The translations under genes and the position numbers were made by a program. Below, piece after piece: positions 1 through 4,274 of a DNA stretch of 4,274 nt. Numbering within the stretch: position 1 is the stretch's first letter; each line of letters begins with the position of its first letter. The stretch lies in IMG/VR virus record IMGVR_UViG_2690316115_000023; one strand, written 5' to 3'. The DNA comes from a virus. Taxonomy: Duplodnaviria; Heunggongvirae; Uroviricota; Caudoviricetes. The notes beneath the pieces were generated by a model, which saw only the letters and a list, made by a program, of their open reading frames with translations, had not been told where the DNA came from and ran no database searches.

Positions 1-102
1 CTGCCACTGTTTCGCATGTGCCCAGGCATCACTACCCGCAAAAATAATGACTTCGGTCATCTTGTCGTAAGGCTGTTTTTTTAAGTTCGGTGCGCTTTTC
101 AT
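1..102 (-). CDS. Partial CDS (first 34 codons; continues beyond the window start), unknown function
   Basis: ATG at 102..100 overlaps the upstream TGA (ATGA coupling), with AGGGG 6 nt upstream. Open to the window edge. Translation: MKSAPNLKKQPYDKMTEVIIFAGSDAWAHAKQWQ. Confidence 0.45.
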   Translation of the reverse strand, partial: MKSAPNLKKQPYDKMTEVIIFAGSDAWAHAKQWQ

Positions 103-398
103 TTCTTGCCCCTGAATCCGTTAATCATGTTTTTCATCTTCTGAATATTGGTGCGTGCTTTCTCCCTGCTGGTTGGTTTACTGCGGGGCGCTGCCTGTAC
201 CAGAGAAAAATCACGATCGAACTGATAAACAGGCATAACGCAGTCATATTCGTAGCCTTCACGGCGGTAAGTGATGCGGCGTTCTCTCACGCTGATAATC
301 GTCACGATGCCGCCGTACTGGTCGCGGTAAATATCCCCGCGCATGAATTTAGTGCGAGTTTTGCCACTGGCAGTTAAGCCAGGATATTTAAGTTTCAT
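99..398 (-). CDS. Small hypothetical protein (99 aa), possibly DUF4222-like
   Basis: ATG at 398 with GGAGA 9 nt upstream. The core GDIYRDQYGGIVTIISVRERRITYRREGYEYDCVMPVYQFDRDFSLV matches my recollection of the DUF4222 pattern (YRD..G..V.V..V...R.TF.R.GY...C..P...F...F); unverified. TGA stop at 101..99. Confidence 0.6.
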   Translation of the reverse strand: MKLKYPGLTASGKTRTKFMRGDIYRDQYGGIVTIISVRERRITYRREGYEYDCVMPVYQFDRDFSLVQAAPRSKPTSREKARTNIQKMKNMINGFRGKK

Positions 399-403
399 TA
401 TTT

Positions 404-637
404 TTATTCTCCGGTGTGCTGTTCTTTATATCTGTCGTGCAATAGATCTATTTCCTGCAACTCATTTATTACAGGCTCAAGAAGCGTTATTAATGATGTA
501 ATAATCCGCGTTTTTTTTGCATTACGTTCATTATCGCCAAAGGATTCAAGGCACATCCGCAATATTTCGTACATACCTTCAGCGTAAGCAAGGGCACTAA
601 ATGCGCGGTCTATTGTTTCAAGATAAATATCACGCAT
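404..637 (-). CDS. Small hypothetical protein (77 aa), probable third, more divergent member of the paralog array
   Basis: ATG at 637, one nt after the upstream TAA (coupled). TAA stop at 406..404. Weak similarity to the previous two (AL ... E-x-M ... L-C/E-T/S). Confidence 0.55.
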   Translation of the reverse strand: MRDIYLETIDRAFSALAYAEGMYEILRMCLESFGDNERNAKKTRIITSLITLLEPVINELQEIDLLHDRYKEQHTGE

Positions 638-638
638 A

Positions 639-860
639 TTAATCCCCGTCCGTTGTTTTTCTTAAAACAGCTTCTGTCACGAAATCAGCATAGTTAGCGG
701 CAATATCAAGAATATTTAGCCCTGTACCTCTGTGCTCATCAGTGCAAAGAAAGAAAAAAGCCACCCGCATAATTTCAGATATTGACGAAAGCGCATCAGC
801 CGCATCATCAGGAACGCCGGAAAATTCTTGTTTCAGGGAATTAAAACGATCATCACGCAT
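639..860 (-). CDS. Small hypothetical protein (73 aa), second member of the paralog array
   Basis: ATG at 860 (8-nt overlap with the upstream TGA), preceded by the G8 tract as an SD-like element. TAA stop at 641..639. Carries GVPDDAADALSSI and GLNILDIA, paralogous to the 853..1074 product. The ORF track extends to 908, but that start has no RBS. Confidence 0.55.
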   Translation of the reverse strand: MRDDRFNSLKQEFSGVPDDAADALSSISEIMRVAFFFLCTDEHRGTGLNILDIAANYADFVTEAVLRKTTDGD

Positions 861-1074
861 AACCCCCCCCATTTTCACAATCAGCAACAAGAATATTTTT
901 AGCGTCATTCAGCGACCGCGTTGCGATGTATCGGATACATTCCAGGGCGAACGTTGTCCGGTCTTTCTGTTCTTCTCCCTGCGCAAGCTCTGCCGTGCAT
1001 TCAATATCAATAAGCGCGTGCATCAGCGTAGTGAGCGCGGCGGCGGCTGCGTCCGGTGTGGTTTTATTGCACAT
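853..1074 (-). CDS. Small hypothetical protein (73 aa), first member of a three-paralog array
   Basis: ATG at 1074 with AGGAGG 6 nt upstream; the start overlaps the upstream stop by 11 nt. TGA stop at 855..853. Shares the motif PD-A/D-AA-A/D-AL-T/S-T/S-L/I and NIL with the next gene, with synonymous codon differences. Confidence 0.6.
   Translation of the reverse strand: MCNKTTPDAAAAALTTLMHALIDIECTAELAQGEEQKDRTTFALECIRYIATRSLNDAKNILVADCENGGGYA
863..870. repeat. Homopolymeric C8 (G8 on the coding strand) tract at the junction of two overlapping genes
   Basis: Eight consecutive C at 863..870. It encodes Gly-Gly-Gly at the C-terminus of the upstream gene and sits 2 nt upstream of the ATG of the downstream gene. 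Confidence 0.9.
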
Positions 1075-1255
1075 GGCACACCTCCTGACGAATACGGGCG
1101 GCGAATACAGCAACACAACCGGACGGGCAACGGCTACGTGCTTCGCGTTCCGTCCAGGCGGTTACGTGGATGATTTGATGTTCTGACGCGCCAAAGATGA
1201 TAAAGCGCCAGAGAAAGGCGGTTTGAGAATGTACAAGGGTAGGGATAGTAGCCAT
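1064..1255 (-). CDS. Icd-like small protein, copy A (63 aa), translatable independently from an internal start
   Basis: ATG at 1255 with GAGGAGG 8 nt upstream. Sequence MATIPTLVHSQTAFLWRF...EREARSRCPSGCVAVFAARIRQEVCHVQ. The family assignment is from recalled Icd-like sequences (F-x-W-x-F near the N-terminus, EQEAR ... F-x-A-R near the C-terminus) and is unverified. Confidence 0.6.
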   Translation of the reverse strand: MATIPTLVHSQTAFLWRFIIFGASEHQIIHVTAWTEREARSRCPSGCVAVFAARIRQEVCHVQ

Positions 1256-1624
1256 GTTGGCAGCCTCCTCAGTGTGGTTAAGATAACCGCCACCGGAAAC
1301 GCCAATTTCGCTGGTGGCGGACTGTACAGGGTTGGCGTAACCGGACACTGAAGAAACCGGCGCGGATTGCTCCGCCCCCGTACAGCCCACCATTGATAAG
1401 GTGTGACTATGCGGCACAAAAAAACACGCGGGGCGCGTGTTATGCGCTTCAGTTTTGCCCAGGACGCCAATCCCGGCACCCGTTTTATGAGGTGCGCGGG
1501 AATCATAGCTATTTTCGACACTGGCGATCAACTGGTTTTTTTCTCCGATATTCAGGGCCAGAAAACGCCACACAAAGGCCGTTTGTGTGTGTACAAGGTG
1601 TGGTATATGATTTACGGCAACCAT
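1064..1624 (-). CDS. Two-domain read-through ORF (186 aa): tandem paralogous domains, tentatively Icd-like (host cell division inhibitor-like), joined by a Gly/Ser-rich linker
   Basis: ATG at 1624 with AGGAG 5 nt upstream (the ORF-track extension to GTG 1723 has no SD). The N-domain (PHLVHTQTAFVWRF...TEAHNTRPACFFV) and C-domain (PTLVHSQTAFLWRF...EREARSRCPSGCVAVFAARIRQEV) align with several synonymous codon differences (CAC/CAT, ACG/ACC, CGT/CGC), indicating protein-level conservation. There is no in-frame stop between them. TAA stop at 1066..1064. Confidence 0.5.
   Translation of the reverse strand: MVAVNHIPHLVHTQTAFVWRFLALNIGEKNQLIASVENSYDSRAPHKTGAGIGVLGKTEAHNTRPACFFVPHSHTLSMVGCTGAEQSAPVSSVSGYANPVQSATSEIGVSGGGYLNHTEEAANMATIPTLVHSQTAFLWRFIIFGASEHQIIHVTAWTEREARSRCPSGCVAVFAARIRQEVCHVQ
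1418..1440 (-). terminator. Intragenic intrinsic-terminator-like hairpin inside the first Icd-like domain
   Basis: On the minus strand: ACACGCG-CCC-CGCGUGU (7-bp GC-rich stem, 3-nt loop) followed by U6. It lies within the codons for NTRPACFF. Confidence 0.4.
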
Positions 1625-1654
1625 AACGGCTCCTAGTTTACGTTGTTGGTTAGA

Positions 1655-1697
1655 AGCCCTGCGAGTGGTAATGACACTTGCGGGGCTTTGCTTTTTT
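1655..1697 (+). terminator. Plus-oriented intrinsic terminator upstream of the RHH promoter region
   Basis: 13-bp stem (1655..1667 with 1675..1687, two G-U pairs), 7-nt loop, followed by UUGCUUUUUU. On the minus strand the two G-U pairs become C-A mismatches, so the structure is strand-specific. Confidence 0.55.
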
Positions 1698-1713
1698 AAG
1701 TGCTCTTGTGTTA

Positions 1714-1725
1714 AGGTGACCACCT
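1714..1725. promoter_or_regulatory. Palindromic operator-like site 1 (AGGTG-AC-CACCT)
   Basis: Perfect 5-bp inverted repeat with a 2-bp spacer, in the divergent intergenic region between the RHH gene (plus) and the small-protein operon (minus). Confidence 0.45.
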
Positions 1726-1748
1726 AACAATGGAAAGGCTAATTCAAT

Positions 1749-1760
1749 AGGTGACCACTT
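1749..1760. promoter_or_regulatory. Palindromic operator-like site 2 (AGGTG-AC-CACTT)
   Basis: Near-perfect inverted repeat overlapping the SD and start codon of the RHH gene; 35 bp from site 1. Confidence 0.45.
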
Positions 1761-1950
1761 GTCAACAATCAAACGCGATAAAAGCCCTAAAGGGGACGGG
1801 CAATCCCCACAATTCAGAATGCGAATTTCTCCAGAGCTAAAAGAGCAATTCGACAAAGAAGCACAGAGCGACGGCATAAGCCTAGCCAACTGGCTTAAAG
1901 AGTTGGGGCGCACTGAACTAAAGCGGCGCGGCATAGAACCCAAAGGATAA
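1759..1950 (+). CDS. Ribbon-helix-helix (Arc/Mnt/CopG-type) DNA-binding protein (63 aa from TTG 1759; 43 aa from ATG 1819)
   Basis: FRMRISPELKEQFDKEAQSDGISLANWLKEL fits the RHH fold pattern: a beta-strand with alternating residues, then helix A, a G-x-S turn and helix B (compare Mnt FNFRMPMEVREKLKFRAEANGRSMNSELL). The TTG start has AGGTG 5 nt upstream, overlapping the second palindrome. TAA stop at 1948..1950. Confidence 0.65.
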   Translation: MSTIKRDKSPKGDGQSPQFRMRISPELKEQFDKEAQSDGISLANWLKELGRTELKRRGIEPKG

Positions 1951-1992
1951 AAACTATCAGCGCCGTGGTGTGAGGTATTACGGCGCATTGCT

Positions 1993-2181
1993 ATGCAGGA
2001 CAACACAATGACCGATAAAGAATTGACCAAAACATTATCACCGGCACGGAAAAGACGGCGCAGAAAGATAGAGCATGAATCAGAAAGATTCGCACCATGT
2101 GCTTTTGCCCTTGAGCAATTCCTTAAAGAGTATAGGGAAAAGCGCTCATTGCAGGTATGGCAACGAACTGAACCAGACTGA
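1993..2181 (+). CDS. Hypothetical small basic protein (62 aa; 57 aa from the ATG at 2008), possible partner of the RHH protein
   Basis: ORF 42 nt downstream of the RHH stop, followed about 95 nt later by the plus-strand terminator. Arg/Lys-rich (KRRRRK). There is no canonical SD: GAGGT lies 16 nt upstream, inside the loop of a 7-bp hairpin at 1960..1986. Rare codons are present. Weakly supported. Confidence 0.35.
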   Translation: MQDNTMTDKELTKTLSPARKRRRRKIEHESERFAPCAFALEQFLKEYREKRSLQVWQRTEPD

Positions 2182-2276
2182 TTGCATTGCCCACCAGCCT
2201 GATAGCGGCTATCATCCCCGTGCTTATGTTTGGGATCACATACACATAAGGCGCAGCGGGTTAATTGTTCAGAAAG

Positions 2277-2303
2277 GCGGCTCCATATCGGGGCCGCTTT
2301 TTT
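2277..2303 (+). terminator. Rho-independent terminator, plus-oriented, closing the RHH / small-ORF unit; a weaker structure on the minus strand could act after alpA
   Basis: Plus strand: GCGGCUCC-AUAUC-GGGGCCGC (8 bp including one G-U) followed by U6 at 2298..2303. The minus-strand version has a C-A mismatch and a poorer U tract. Confidence 0.65.
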
Positions 2304-2329
2304 CGTGTTTGTCATATCTGTGATACCCG

Positions 2330-2536
2330 TTAAGCAGCCGTTCCGCGTGCTTCCTGTTCGCGTTCTTTCTGCCAGGCCAACACATCATCCTCATACCATC
2401 CGCGACGGCGTAAACCAACGCGAAAACCCTGCGGAAATTCTCCGGCGTTGATCATGCTTTGCAGCGTGCTGTCTGCCTTGATGTGGATAATTTTTTTTAC
2501 TTCCTGGCGAAAGATAATTTTTCTGATTGCTTCCAT
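2330..2536 (-). CDS. alpA: AlpA / Vis / excisionase-like HTH prophage regulatory protein (68 aa)
   Basis: The segment STLQSMINAGEFPQGFRVGLRRRGWYEDDVLAWQ matches the AlpA-family HTH pattern (S-T-I/L ... G-x-F-P ... G-x-R ... W ... V-x-x-W). ATG at 2536, with AAGGT 8-9 nt upstream; TAA stop at 2332..2330. Confidence 0.85.
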   Translation of the reverse strand: MEAIRKIIFRQEVKKIIHIKADSTLQSMINAGEFPQGFRVGLRRRGWYEDDVLAWQKEREQEARGTAA

Positions 2537-2613
2537 CGTGATTTACCTTGTGAATCCGGTGTATTCCGGTGACAAATACGGTAAATCATCGGATATGGGT
2601 AAAAACAGTTCCC

Positions 2614-2643
2614 ACCGTTTTTAAACGGTATACACCGTTTTTT
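2614..2643. promoter_or_regulatory. Array of three alternating ACCGTTT / AAACGGT half-sites in the alpA upstream region
   Basis: ACCGTTT-TT-AAACGGT (2614..2629) overlaps AACGGT-ATAC-ACCGTT (2624..2639). The ACCGTTT half-sites are 20 bp apart. Direct repeats TCCGGTG at 2555 and 2565 lie immediately upstream of the alpA SD. Confidence 0.35.
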
Positions 2644-2669
2644 ATATTGATGATTTGAAATGGAATTAT

Positions 2670-2693
2670 AAAAAAAGCGGCATTTCTGCCGCT
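2670..2693 (-). terminator. Rho-independent terminator ending the int / small-ORF transcript
   Basis: On the minus strand: GCGGCA-GAAA-UGCCGC hairpin (6-8 bp stem, 4-nt loop) followed immediately by U7 (plus-strand A7 at 2670..2676). Confidence 0.7.
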
Positions 2694-2703
2694 TCCAGGA
2701 TTG

Positions 2704-2955
2704 TTACCGCCATTTTTTGGGCCTGCCTCCGATCTTCATAGATGCCGGACGTACGACCTTATCAATACTTACCGCCAGATTTCTGGAAGCGCCACGGGAT
2801 ACCAGAAAGTCTACTACCTGTTTTTTTGATGGGGCCGTCGTTCTGTCCTCCGGATCGTAGGTTGACCAAAATTCATGCTGAACCATCAGGGCCAGTTGCA
2901 GCCCGTCGCAATTGCATCTGATATTTTTTTGCATCTTAACGGTTTCATGTTTCAC
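2704..2955 (-). CDS. Hypothetical small protein (83 aa from GTG; 76 aa from the internal ATG at 2934)
   Basis: ORF between int and alpA with TAA stop at 2706..2704, followed 11 nt later by a strong minus-strand intrinsic terminator. The start is weakly supported: GTG with AAGG only 2 nt upstream, or ATG at 2934 with no clear SD. No family recognised. Confidence 0.4.
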   Translation of the reverse strand: MKHETVKMQKNIRCNCDGLQLALMVQHEFWSTYDPEDRTTAPSKKQVVDFLVSRGASRNLAVSIDKVVRPASMKIGGRPKKWR

Positions 2956-2979
2956 GGCCTTGTCGTTAAATTTGATGCA

Positions 2980-2985
2980 ATTATA
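2980..2985 (-). promoter_or_regulatory. Candidate -10 hexamer (TATAAT on the minus strand) for the small ORF downstream of int
   Basis: Perfect TATAAT on the minus strand about 25 nt upstream of the GTG at 2955, preceded by phased A-tracts (plus-strand GGTTTT repeats at 2990, 3000, 3019). No good -35 hexamer. Confidence 0.3.
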
Positions 2986-3032
2986 CGACGGTTTTACATG
3001 GTTTTCGTAGTTTTTACTGGTTTTCTGTACAG

Positions 3033-4274
3033 CTACACGGCTCGGATACCCCTTTTACCACTGGCGAGGGTTACGCCCGTCGCCGCAGCCTCGACAAATT
3101 CGCCCCACCAGCGCATCAGCACGATGCGTTTTTCTATGTAGTTGCTCCGGTTGTATGCCCGTCTAACTTCGTTGGTGTCGACGTGGGCAAGTGCCGCCTC
3201 TATTACGTCCGGCTCGAATCCTTCCTCGTTCGCTGCTGTGCTGAATATGGCGCGTAATCCATGAGACACCAGCACGCCAGCGAATCCCATACGCCGCAAT
3301 GCTGCGTTAGCTGTCTGGCTGTTCATCGGCTGCTGTGGGTCTTTCAGACTTGGGAAAACGTAATTGCGGTGGTGGCTGATTGGTTTCATGGCCTCCAGCA
3401 CCGCCATAGCCTGACCGGAAAGCGGGATAACGTGATCCCTGCGCATCTTCATACGTCCGGCAGGTATCGTCCATTGCTTCGCGTCCAGGTTGATTTCATC
3501 CCACCGCGTTGATGACGCTTCGGCGGGACGGGTTACGGTCAGTAACTGCCATTCAATCAGTAATCTGGTCTGCCGTTCTGTTGCCGATACTGATAAAGCC
3601 TGCATAAGCTCCGGCAGCTGTTCGGGGCGGATTGTTGGCATATGTTTTTTTACAGGTGAGGGAAACGCCTTACGCACATTCATAGCCGGATTGGCATCAA
3701 TCAGCCCACTGTTGGCGGCGTAATCCATTACCTCATTAACGCGCTGTAAAACCCGCTTGAGTGTTTCCAGGTTGCCGCGCTCCTTGATGGGGGTAAGCAC
3801 TTCAACGAACCTTCGGGCGGTGAGGGTATCTATTGGCGTGTTGCCGATGAACGGGAATACATATTTATCCAGCGAACGCCAGATGTCTTTAATCGTGTTG
3901 GGGGCCAGATTCTGGCTGATTTTCACCTGGTACCATGCCGCCGCCACATTTTCGAACGTGTTCCCTTGTCTTCGGGCCTCTGTCTCTCTTTTTTGCCTCT
4001 CGTGGTCCTGCGGGTCAGTTCCGGCACTGATTAACGTCCTGTACTCGCTACGGCGTTTTCTGGCATCAGCCAGGGAAACATCTTCAAGCGATCCAAAACT
4101 CAGCAATATTCTTTTTTTGTCCGATGGTCGGTAGTAGGAAAATCTCCAGAGTTTTGATCCAGACGGTTTGACCAGGAGAAAAAGCCCTCCGCCGTCCTGC
4201 AGGGTGTACTCCTTTTGCGCTGGTCTGGCTGCTTTGATCTGCACTGTGGTTAATGGGTGTGTTTTTCTCACCAT
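3033..4274 (-). CDS. int: Site-specific tyrosine recombinase, P4-type phage integrase family (413 aa)
   Basis: The N-terminus (KEYTLQDGGGLFLLVKPSGSKLWRFSY) is the typical P4-like integrase arm-binding region. The C-terminal catalytic domain carries TVTRPAEA (box I Arg), SHGLRAIFST (HxxR) and LAHV...RAYNRSNY (His and catalytic Tyr). ATG at 4274..4272, TAG stop at 3035..3033. The RBS and promoter lie outside the window. Confidence 0.95.
   Translation of the reverse strand: MVRKTHPLTTVQIKAARPAQKEYTLQDGGGLFLLVKPSGSKLWRFSYYRPSDKKRILLSFGSLEDVSLADARKRRSEYRTLISAGTDPQDHERQKRETEARRQGNTFENVAAAWYQVKISQNLAPNTIKDIWRSLDKYVFPFIGNTPIDTLTARRFVEVLTPIKERGNLETLKRVLQRVNEVMDYAANSGLIDANPAMNVRKAFPSPVKKHMPTIRPEQLPELMQALSVSATERQTRLLIEWQLLTVTRPAEASSTRWDEINLDAKQWTIPAGRMKMRRDHVIPLSGQAMAVLEAMKPISHHRNYVFPSLKDPQQPMNSQTANAALRRMGFAGVLVSHGLRAIFSTAANEEGFEPDVIEAALAHVDTNEVRRAYNRSNYIEKRIVLMRWWGEFVEAAATGVTLASGKRGIRAV

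Follow-up and report, generated by a model that had tools for sequence, protein, structure and literature searches.

The integration, regulation and immunity half of a probable phage-inducible chromosomal island at the tRNA-Pro site of Escherichia coli

The 4,274-nucleotide (nt) stretch of the virus record IMGVR_UViG_2690316115_000023 that we analyse here, referred to at its full length as the window, very probably belongs to a Gram-negative phage-inducible chromosomal island (PICI), a variant of the published Escherichia coli island EcCI11368.1, and makes up the half that serves integration, regulation and immunity. An initial annotation, made from the sequence alone, had judged the layout to be PICI-like rather than that of a canonical P4 satellite, and our comparisons bear this out: over its full length the window is 94.8% identical in nucleotide sequence to EcCI11368.1, from E. 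coli O26:H11 11368 (amino-acid identity 99.8% for the integrase, Int, 97% for AlpA and 100% for Icd), and the P4 genes sid, delta, psu, epsilon and alpha are absent by tblastn. Table S1 of Fillol-Salom et al. 2018 (PMC6092414) lists EcCI11368.1, together with EcCI11128, EcCIED1a.1, EcCIATCC25922 and SdCI1012, among the Gram-negative PICIs inserted at yejM. Since the island was thus already catalogued in 2018, we take the PICI classification to be right and the element to be an ordinary one. The two islands have in common their att site, an operon of small open reading frames (ORFs), the N-terminus of the replicase and both an isrK and a C4 RNA; they differ in the allele of a ribbon-helix-helix (RHH) gene and in its boxes, and in orf77 and the DUF4222 gene, which are 76-82% identical.

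Taken as its reverse complement, the window is identical to positions 10001-14274 of locus L003, where the E. coli draft contig CYAY01000024.1 ends; since this contig breaks off at the replicase start, the remainder of the island is not seen for the source strain. All backbone genes lie on the minus strand, and the ATG of int starts on the final base of the window (4274). The island site is the 3' end of tRNA-Pro(GGG) (proL), between yejM and yejO. A tRNA had been expected just beyond the right edge, and tRNA-Pro(GGG) indeed lies 218 nt away from it with its 3' end toward int; yejM lies behind the tRNA, on the side away from int, and int is transcribed away from the tRNA, into the island. The initial annotation had also proposed looking for a repeat of the tRNA end at the far boundary of the island. 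When the empty site of E. coli B was compared with both island junctions of strain SMN013SH2 (complete genomes), such a repeat was found: the insertion lies within the 3' end of tRNA-Pro, the island restores the tRNA on its int side (...TTTGGTCGGCACGAGAG...), and a degenerate copy of the tRNA end, TTTTTGGTCCACGAGAG, imperfect by 2 nt, lies about 8.85 kb away beside yejO. For tRNA-Pro PICIs, the supplement of PMC10111431 has the same core, CTCT-CGTG, that we find here.

A second repeat, TAGTTATACG, which Fillol-Salom et al. (PMC6092414) listed as the 'att core', occurs in 6 copies in EcCI11368.1, solely at the two island ends (4 between the tRNA and int, 2 at the far end), where about 0.45 would be expected by chance. 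We read these copies as putative arm-type sites of Int, their placement being like that of the annotated arm-type repeats of P4 attP. Measured from the actual crossover in the tRNA-Pro 3' end, this published 'att core' of the PICIs at yejM (TTTGTAGTTATACG...) stands about 130 nt away, and it behaves like arm-type sites of Int; the positions concerned are 1164-1215 and 9710-9731 of L015 and 10770-10795 and 19355-19411 of L001 (strain SMN013SH2).

A search downstream for replication and packaging genes, which the initial annotation had called for, could be carried out in complete relatives, and it was productive. The replicase stub of the window, 34 codons long, is 100% identical to the N-terminus of a 466-amino-acid (aa) RepA-family AAA_25 helicase in L001, L014 and L015, and in these relatives the replicase is followed by small ORFs, a Terminase_2 small terminase (E 5e-11), a Phage_capsid homologue of the HK97 type (E 1e-6) and then yejO. 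We compared the island with PICI criteria from three sources: Fillol-Salom 2018, the five core components of SatelliteFinder (PMC10085698) and the order of four zones (PMC10111431). The integrase stands at one end and points inward, an AlpA-type regulator lies downstream of int (by PHROG and fold; its Pfam score is sub-threshold), the late zone of the relatives holds a capsid gene and a small terminase, and the relatives are compact (against a size criterion of about 8-15 kb) and devoid of tail, lysis and portal genes. The zones follow one another in the relatives as integration (int, orf76, alpA), a regulatory zone with P4-type RNA immunity, replication and late. With the relatives included, the island would fit both the five-component definition and the four-zone order, with the caveat that the replicase, of which the window holds 34 codons, is in the relatives a helicase and not a primase.

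The capsid and small terminase genes of the relatives, and likewise the DUF4222 and Icd-like genes of the window, which are found in lambdoid prophages too, might suggest that the window belongs to a complete conventional prophage, as its left arm. We consider this extremely unlikely. In complete genomes the span from yejO to tRNA-Pro is 8.5-8.9 kb (L001, L015), 9.3 kb (L014) or about 11 kb (L013, strain MS 21-1); no portal, large terminase, head-tail connector, tail, holin or lysis genes are annotated in these four complete relatives; and an inward-pointing int with alpA downstream is the arrangement of a PICI and not of a prophage (PMC10111431). The full conventional prophage that the initial annotation had named as evidence contrary to its own view was not seen in the complete relatives, which are islands of the sizes just given.

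Could the PICI-like island instead be a reduced variant of the P4 family, that is, a P4-like satellite with a P2-like helper? An Int, a Vis/AlpA regulator and CI RNA immunity are all present, Int being 34% identical to P4 Int (E 7e-75) and the regulator matching P4 Vis (E 1e-5), and an eta/ash ORF with isrK and C4, the small ORFs and the replicase are collinear with vis-CI-epsilon-orf151-orf106-alpha of P4. However, P4-like satellites are defined by seven components, Int, Psu, Delta, Sid, AlpA, epsilon/Ash and alpha (PMC10085698), and five of the seven (Psu, Delta, Sid, epsilon and alpha) have no homologue here: tblastn at E <= 0.01 over the window and four complete islands at the site gave no match to P4 Sid, Delta, Psu, epsilon, alpha, Gop, Beta or CII. 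The capsid-hijacking operon psu-delta-sid is thus missing, as are epsilon and alpha, the replicase being of the RepA/AAA_25 type, and the late zone of the relatives carries the small terminase and the HK97-type capsid homologue described above. With the window also 94.8% identical over its whole length to a catalogued PICI, a P4-like satellite seems very unlikely to us.

A further alternative to a functional PICI would be a cryptic element like CP4-57 in the course of decay, an immobile remnant consisting of integrase and AlpA. Such a remnant would be in keeping with the 54% identity of Int to CP4-57 IntA, with the order int, one gene, alpA that the two elements have in common, with the frameshifted small ORFs of some relatives (L013, L014) and with the 2-nt imperfection of the far-end att copy. 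On the other hand, every ORF of the window is intact and tightly coupled to its neighbours, both RNA genes are full length, and the arm-type sites and candidate AlpA boxes are intact as well. At least 80% of the window is carried by 187 complete E. coli genomes, and the left end of the island is found at the tRNA-Pro site in about 333 genomes. Moreover, islands at different att sites have exchanged modules, and this implies that they are still mobile. We regard decay as quite improbable, and in what follows we treat the window as part of a PICI.

With regard to this exchange, we observe that near-identical early modules are common to islands at different att sites and that whole zones are swapped. 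The late zones at the tRNA-Pro site are of two kinds, one with Terminase_2 and an HK97-like capsid and the other resembling that of the PICI EcCICFT073, with PerC, SSB, a lambda-like capsid and a decoration protein (L013 800-11900 compared with L001 10600-19650 and L011 27931-38655).

The features of the window are as follows, from int to the replicase, with the evidence for each in brackets.

4274..3033, minus strand: tyrosine integrase, 413 aa (Pfam Arm-DNA-bind_3, Phage_int_M and Phage_integrase; NCBIfam PRK09692, 551 bits)
2934..2704, minus strand: orf76, 76 aa, function not assigned; longest ORF start 2955 (ORF list)
2696..2673, minus strand: terminator-like hairpin with T-run, end of the int-orf76 unit (terminator scan)
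2642..2555, minus strand: region upstream of alpA with repeats and CACCGGA boxes (repeat search)
2536..2330, minus strand: Vis/AlpA-like winged helix-turn-helix (HTH) protein, 68 aa (PHROG, fold, context)
2271..2303, plus strand: strong intrinsic terminator of the RHH-orf62 unit (terminator scan)
1993..2181, plus strand: orf62, small basic protein (PHROG 21027, E 1.6e-15)
1759..1950, plus strand: Arc-like RHH protein, 63 aa, TTG start (PHROG 228, E 5e-7)
1765..1714, minus strand: sigma-70-like promoter toward the eta/icd operon, with two boxes (TTGACA, 18 nt, TAGCCT)
1625..1064, minus strand: eta/ash-like ORF, 186 aa from ATG 1625, open from GTG 1723 (Phage_ASH)
1607..1562 and 1247..1202, minus strand: 46-nt direct repeats either side of the RNA cassette (repeat search)
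1531..1502, minus strand: sigma-70-like promoter just 5' of isrK (TTGATC, 18 nt, TATGAT)
1495..1419, minus strand: isrK-type leader RNA with intrinsic terminator (Rfam RF01394, 66 bits)
1397..1310, minus strand: C4/CI-type antisense immunity RNA (Rfam RF01695, 77.6 bits)
1275..1261, minus strand: seqC-like target over the icd Shine-Dalgarno GAGGAGG (15-nt complementarity to the C4 loop)
1255..1064, minus strand: Icd-like (P4 Kil-like) cell-division inhibitor homologue, 63 aa (NCBIfam NF033153, 57 bits)
1074..853, minus strand: orf73a (PHROG 5146, E 3e-12)
860..639, minus strand: orf73b (PHROG 24341, E 3e-42)
637..404, minus strand: orf77 (PHROG 2196, E 2e-31)
398..99, minus strand: DUF4222 protein, 99 aa (Pfam PF13973, E 1.4e-23)
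102..1, minus strand: replication protein, first 34 codons, running off the window and the source contig (identity to relatives)

The initial annotation had described int and the alpA-type gene as adjacent and co-oriented and as followed by a same-strand operon of small proteins. Co-orientation holds, but the two genes are not adjacent, orf76 and the hairpin at 2696..2673 intervening. The operon is likewise there, and from icd to the replicase start it is tightly packed, with consecutive stop and start codons overlapping or abutting (the start of orf73a overlaps the icd stop by 11 nt, and that of the replicase overlaps the DUF4222 stop as ATGA); however, it does not follow alpA directly, for the opposite-strand RHH gene and orf62 and the isrK/C4 cassette lie between. 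The terminator at 2271..2303 is weakly terminator-like for read-through from alpA. Searches of Pfam, NCBIfam and PHROG gave no family match for orf76, which is annotated as a 76-aa hypothetical protein in L001, L013, L014 and L015 and is 94-100% identical at the amino-acid level in relatives, and orf62 is 100% identical at that level in EcCICFT073, L001 and L015.

RefSeq labels over 1650-2315 and 1064-1723 (minus strand) of the window are inconsistent between genomes (L013 8961-9626; L015 3208-3723 and 3877-4215). The variants include a 221-aa 'hypothetical protein', an 'Icd-like' pseudogene and an 'ash family' pseudogene, and the RNA genes are absent from the annotation. We rejected the 221-aa minus-strand ORF (2315..1650) as a gene, since it has no family match and is antisense to two supported ORFs. 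An assignment of the 63-aa plus-strand RHH protein to YlcI/YnfO was rejected as well, its match being to PHROG 228 (Arc-like) and that of the YlcI/YnfO proteins of L001 and L011 to PHROG 949. The view that the 'ash' ORF (219 aa) is spurious over RNA genes was withdrawn, because the eta ORF of P4 also spans CI and the Pfam and PHROG matches are strong. Better supported than the RefSeq calls of this region are the two RNAs, isrK and C4, and the two genes RHH and orf62.

The 68-aa product of the alpA-type gene matches PHROG 66 (E 5.5e-7) and 2790 (E 3e-6), both 'excisionase and transcriptional regulator', as do P4 Vis and the AlpA of EcCICFT073. Its sole sequence match in PDB is 8c3t, an AlpA-family protein, at E 0.48, and the same structure, described as an AlpA-family excisionase, is the best Foldseek match (probability 0.91) of its AlphaFold2 (AF2) model, which is moderately reliable (predicted local distance difference test, pLDDT, 66); further Foldseek matches are to phage Xis and MerR-family proteins. 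Its homologues make up 18 clusters from a narrow Escherichia/Shigella clade, none of them less than 79% identical, and NCBI names them HTH regulator or AlpA family; a precomputed Pfam domain is present in none of the 18. We treat the protein as working like AlpA/Vis on the strength of its position and fold, its Pfam score falling short of strict family membership. AlpA is the activator needed for induction in EcCICFT073 (PMC6092414) and in EcCIMP1 (PMC11773190), and the activation of the downstream operon by AlpA, as the initial annotation had it, may be expected here by analogy with EcCICFT073.

Upstream of alpA a 20-nt repeat stands in tandem (2642..2603), followed by a pair of CACCGGA boxes at a spacing of 10 nt (2571..2555), 19-35 nt 5' of the alpA ATG, and these boxes are candidate AlpA autoregulatory sites. 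The motif TCCGGTG/CACCGGA occurs 11 times in L003, against 1.4 expected, and past the right edge of the window three CACCGGA copies at 10-nt phase abut the tRNA 3' end (L003 9790-9816; also 9884-9890). The phased boxes are likely to be binding sites of the Vis/AlpA-like protein, a prediction that would link excision to autoregulation.

The initial annotation missed a P4-type RNA immunity cassette, in which isrK and a C4/CI RNA lie within the eta/ash ORF that ends in icd. Both RNAs match their Rfam models over the full length and well above the gathering score, C4 at model positions 1-87 of 87 (77.6 bits vs 45) and isrK at 1-77 of 77 (66 bits vs 50), and the scores in EcCI11368.1 are identical; matches to rnk_pseudo and c4-a1b1 fell below threshold and were set aside. 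The eta/ash ORF, which encloses both RNA genes, matches Pfam Phage_ASH (E 6e-17) and PHROG 29966 (E 1e-109) and is 32% identical to the P4 'cI' ORF over 111 aa. The Icd-like protein consists of the last 63 codons of this ORF and scores 57 bits against a cut-off of 25. The loop region of C4 hairpin 2, CGGUUUCUUCAGUGU, is complementary to 1275..1261 over 15 contiguous nt (4 of them G-U), a length of contiguous pairing, measured for the loop region only, that was reached in 2 of 300 shuffles. A comparison of the whole C4 RNA with 40-nt windows by RNAduplex was uninformative, shuffles giving similar energies. In P4 the same complementarity to two sites surrounds the CI RNA, and the P4 genome (NC_001609) has its isrK match at 8692..8615 and its C4/CI match at 8507..8420 (74.9 bits), directly 3' of vis and on the same strand, so that the two RNAs follow one another as they do in the window. 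From its position relative to the isrK match we infer that the promoter at 1531..1502 may be the analogue of P4 PLE.

The cassette appears to be an exchangeable unit. C4 and isrK were not found by Rfam search in EcCI11128 or in MS 21-1 (L013). In the latter, the int, alpA and RHH alleles are 99.7% identical to those of the window, positions 1239-1540 (isrK, C4 and the start of icd) are lacking, and the flanks match (L013 8852-8909). On either side of the absent stretch stand the 46-nt direct repeats, themselves duplicated icd 5' ends, and the RNA cassette therefore appears to be gained or lost by exchange between them.

The opposite-strand RHH gene provides the single unreported lead of this analysis. 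The protein matches Pfam HicB at E 5e-4, below threshold, and its best PDB sequence match is the Arc repressor (E 0.2); the RHH allele of EcCI11368.1 is 46% identical to that of the window, and L001, L011 and L014 have a YlcI/YnfO protein instead. In five island variants a promoter toward the operon (TTGAC[AG], 17-18 nt, TAnnnT) lies between the opposite-strand gene and eta/icd, and in four of the five an exact box of 10-14 nt is doubled, one copy falling within the spacer and the other immediately beyond the -10. The sequence of the box varies with the allele of the adjacent opposite-strand gene, as follows.

Window, Arc-like RHH: GTGGTCACCT, copies at 1758..1749 and 1723..1714, minus strand
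EcCI11368.1, RHH 46% identical to that of the window: CATGGTAATTACC
SMN013SH2 (L001), YlcI/YnfO: GTGGCTGACACCT
EcCICFT073, YlcI/YnfO: GTGGGCCACACCT

Outside the window, regions with the promoter and twin boxes are at L001 16728-16765, L015 3740-3786 and L011 30715-30755. Judged by sequence, the RHH gene and the twin boxes look like a repressor-operator pair over the replication operon. More generally, one may ask whether the variable RHH/YlcI gene encodes a repressor with the allele-specific boxes as its operators, the pair acting as a master repressor and immunity-specificity switch of enterobacterial PICIs, above a C4 cassette that is present in some PICIs and absent from others, apparently by exchange. 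We put this forward tentatively, as a possibility that we think somewhat doubtful. According to a rival reading, RHH and orf62 form a toxin-antitoxin pair, and the boxes would then serve autoregulation only. The repressor of Gram-negative PICIs was described as unclear in 2018 (PMC6092414), and we found no paper that assigns a repressor-operator role to the RHH/box pair in these islands; a scan of a genome collection for relatives of orf62, aimed at further RHH/box alleles, found nothing. The co-variation of RHH and box offers a testable candidate for the repressor left unclear in 2018, and it is the one finding here that might be of wider consequence. We also observe, on the plus strand at 1653-1697, a GC-rich hairpin with a T-run; it lies upstream of the RHH gene and inside the 5' leader of the eta/icd operon, and in other alleles (L015, L014) a hairpin of different sequence is retained at this position.

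How might an island of this kind work? Our proposal draws on P4 biology (PMC10111431), on P1 immI and on experiments with EcCICFT073 (PMC6092414) and EcCIMP1 (PMC11773190). In the quiescent island the promoter at 1531..1502 would be constitutive and yield the isrK-type leader and a processed C4/CI RNA. The C4 loop would pair both with the leader, at its seqA-like site, and with the ribosome-binding site of icd, and this pairing would halt translation and transcription ahead of icd and the replication genes. A helper phage would then induce alpA, and AlpA would raise the expression of its own gene and of the operon downstream and, together with Int at the phased CACCGGA boxes beside the att core, would probably excise the island. 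The island would replicate by means of its RepA-type helicase and would be packaged with its own small terminase and capsid homologue together with helper parts.

A number of points weigh against the PICI reading, or against parts of it. The late zone is read from the relatives L001, L014 and L015, the source contig ending at the replicase start, and we found no experiment on this island or on EcCI11368.1 in the literature. The islands at the tRNA-Pro site are mosaic, L013 having a late zone like that of EcCICFT073, and the RepA-type helicase of the relatives is not a primase-type Pri-Rep like that of EcCICFT073. The 68-aa regulator scores 17.6 bits (E 0.0035) against Pfam PF05930, Phage_AlpA, below the gathering threshold of 21, and is below threshold for HTH_17 too (E 0.01); its alignments with P4 Vis (31%, E 1e-5, over 49 aa) and with the AlpA of EcCICFT073 (43% over 30 aa) are partial. 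As a corollary, satellite finders that depend on profiles may miss a regulator allele of this kind. The seqA-like ACUGAAG in the isrK leader is complementary to the C4 loop over only 7 nt. Finally, an Rfam search did not find C4 or isrK in EcCICFT073, even at E <= 1, so the regulation of that island may not transfer fully to ours.

The biological gain is small, because earlier publications already cover the island family, its tRNA-Pro site and the fact that some Gram-negative PICIs carry C4/isrK (PMC10111431). For annotation the gain is more direct: we can confidently annotate the window as an EcCI11368.1-type PICI at proL, and RefSeq calls over the RNA region should give way to isrK, C4 and the two opposite-strand ORFs.

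Among known systems, the experimentally characterised E. coli PICI EcCICFT073, located at 1377930-1388654 in CFT073, has lambda and phi80 as helpers, AlpA as its activator, and Rpp. It shares with the present island the order int, alpA, opposite-strand small genes, an icd-like gene, four small ORFs, DUF4222, replicase and late zone. At the nucleotide level it matches window positions 1-1085 (85%) and 1958-2199 (97.5%), and at the amino-acid level orf73a (98.6%), orf73b (81%), orf77 (73%) and the DUF4222 protein (80%), with 24% for Int. However, its att site is at ycfD-phoQ, unlike the tRNA-Pro site of our island, and it carries a primase, a lambda-like capsid, a decoration protein and Rpp where the window-type relatives carry a RepA helicase, Terminase_2 and an HK97-like capsid.

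The comparison with P4 is of a different kind. Both elements have a P4-family integrase with arm-type repeats around a tRNA-derived core, and both have, on one strand, a Vis/AlpA regulator, an isrK-type leader, a CI/C4 RNA, an eta/kil-like ORF and a replicase operon. Read from attP, P4 runs int, [cII, beta, gop, cos, psu, delta, sid], vis, CI, epsilon, ..., alpha, while the island runs int, [orf76], alpA, [orf62, RHH], isrK/C4, icd, ..., replicase, [terS, capsid]. The initial annotation had placed int and vis at opposite ends of the P4 prophage, which is not the case: vis (9030..8764, NC_001609) lies mid-prophage at the head of the alpha operon, separated from int by the roughly 5.2 kb of cII, beta, gop, cos, psu, delta and sid, and it is alpha that stands at the far end. 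Since the backbone of the island is collinear and co-oriented with the left operon of P4, the contrast between the two is one of gene content and int placement and not of regulatory logic.

The resemblance to CP4-57 that the initial annotation saw holds for part of the element. In CP4-57 of E. coli K-12 (intA, yfjH, alpA at ssrA) the integrase is 413 aa long, as it is here, alpA lies one gene downstream of int, and insertion is beside a small stable RNA gene, as in our island. On the other hand, CP4-57 AlpA has no significant match to the window regulator in a sequence search, the gene that separates int from alpA in CP4-57 runs on the opposite strand, whereas orf76 is on the same strand as int, and CP4-57 is about 22 kb long with different cargo. 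With immI of P1/P7 (c4, icd, ant), finally, the island shares a C4-family RNA upstream of icd and an icd ribosome-binding site complementary to the RNA loop; where P1/P7 has an antirepressor gene downstream, the island has its replication operon as the regulated cargo instead.

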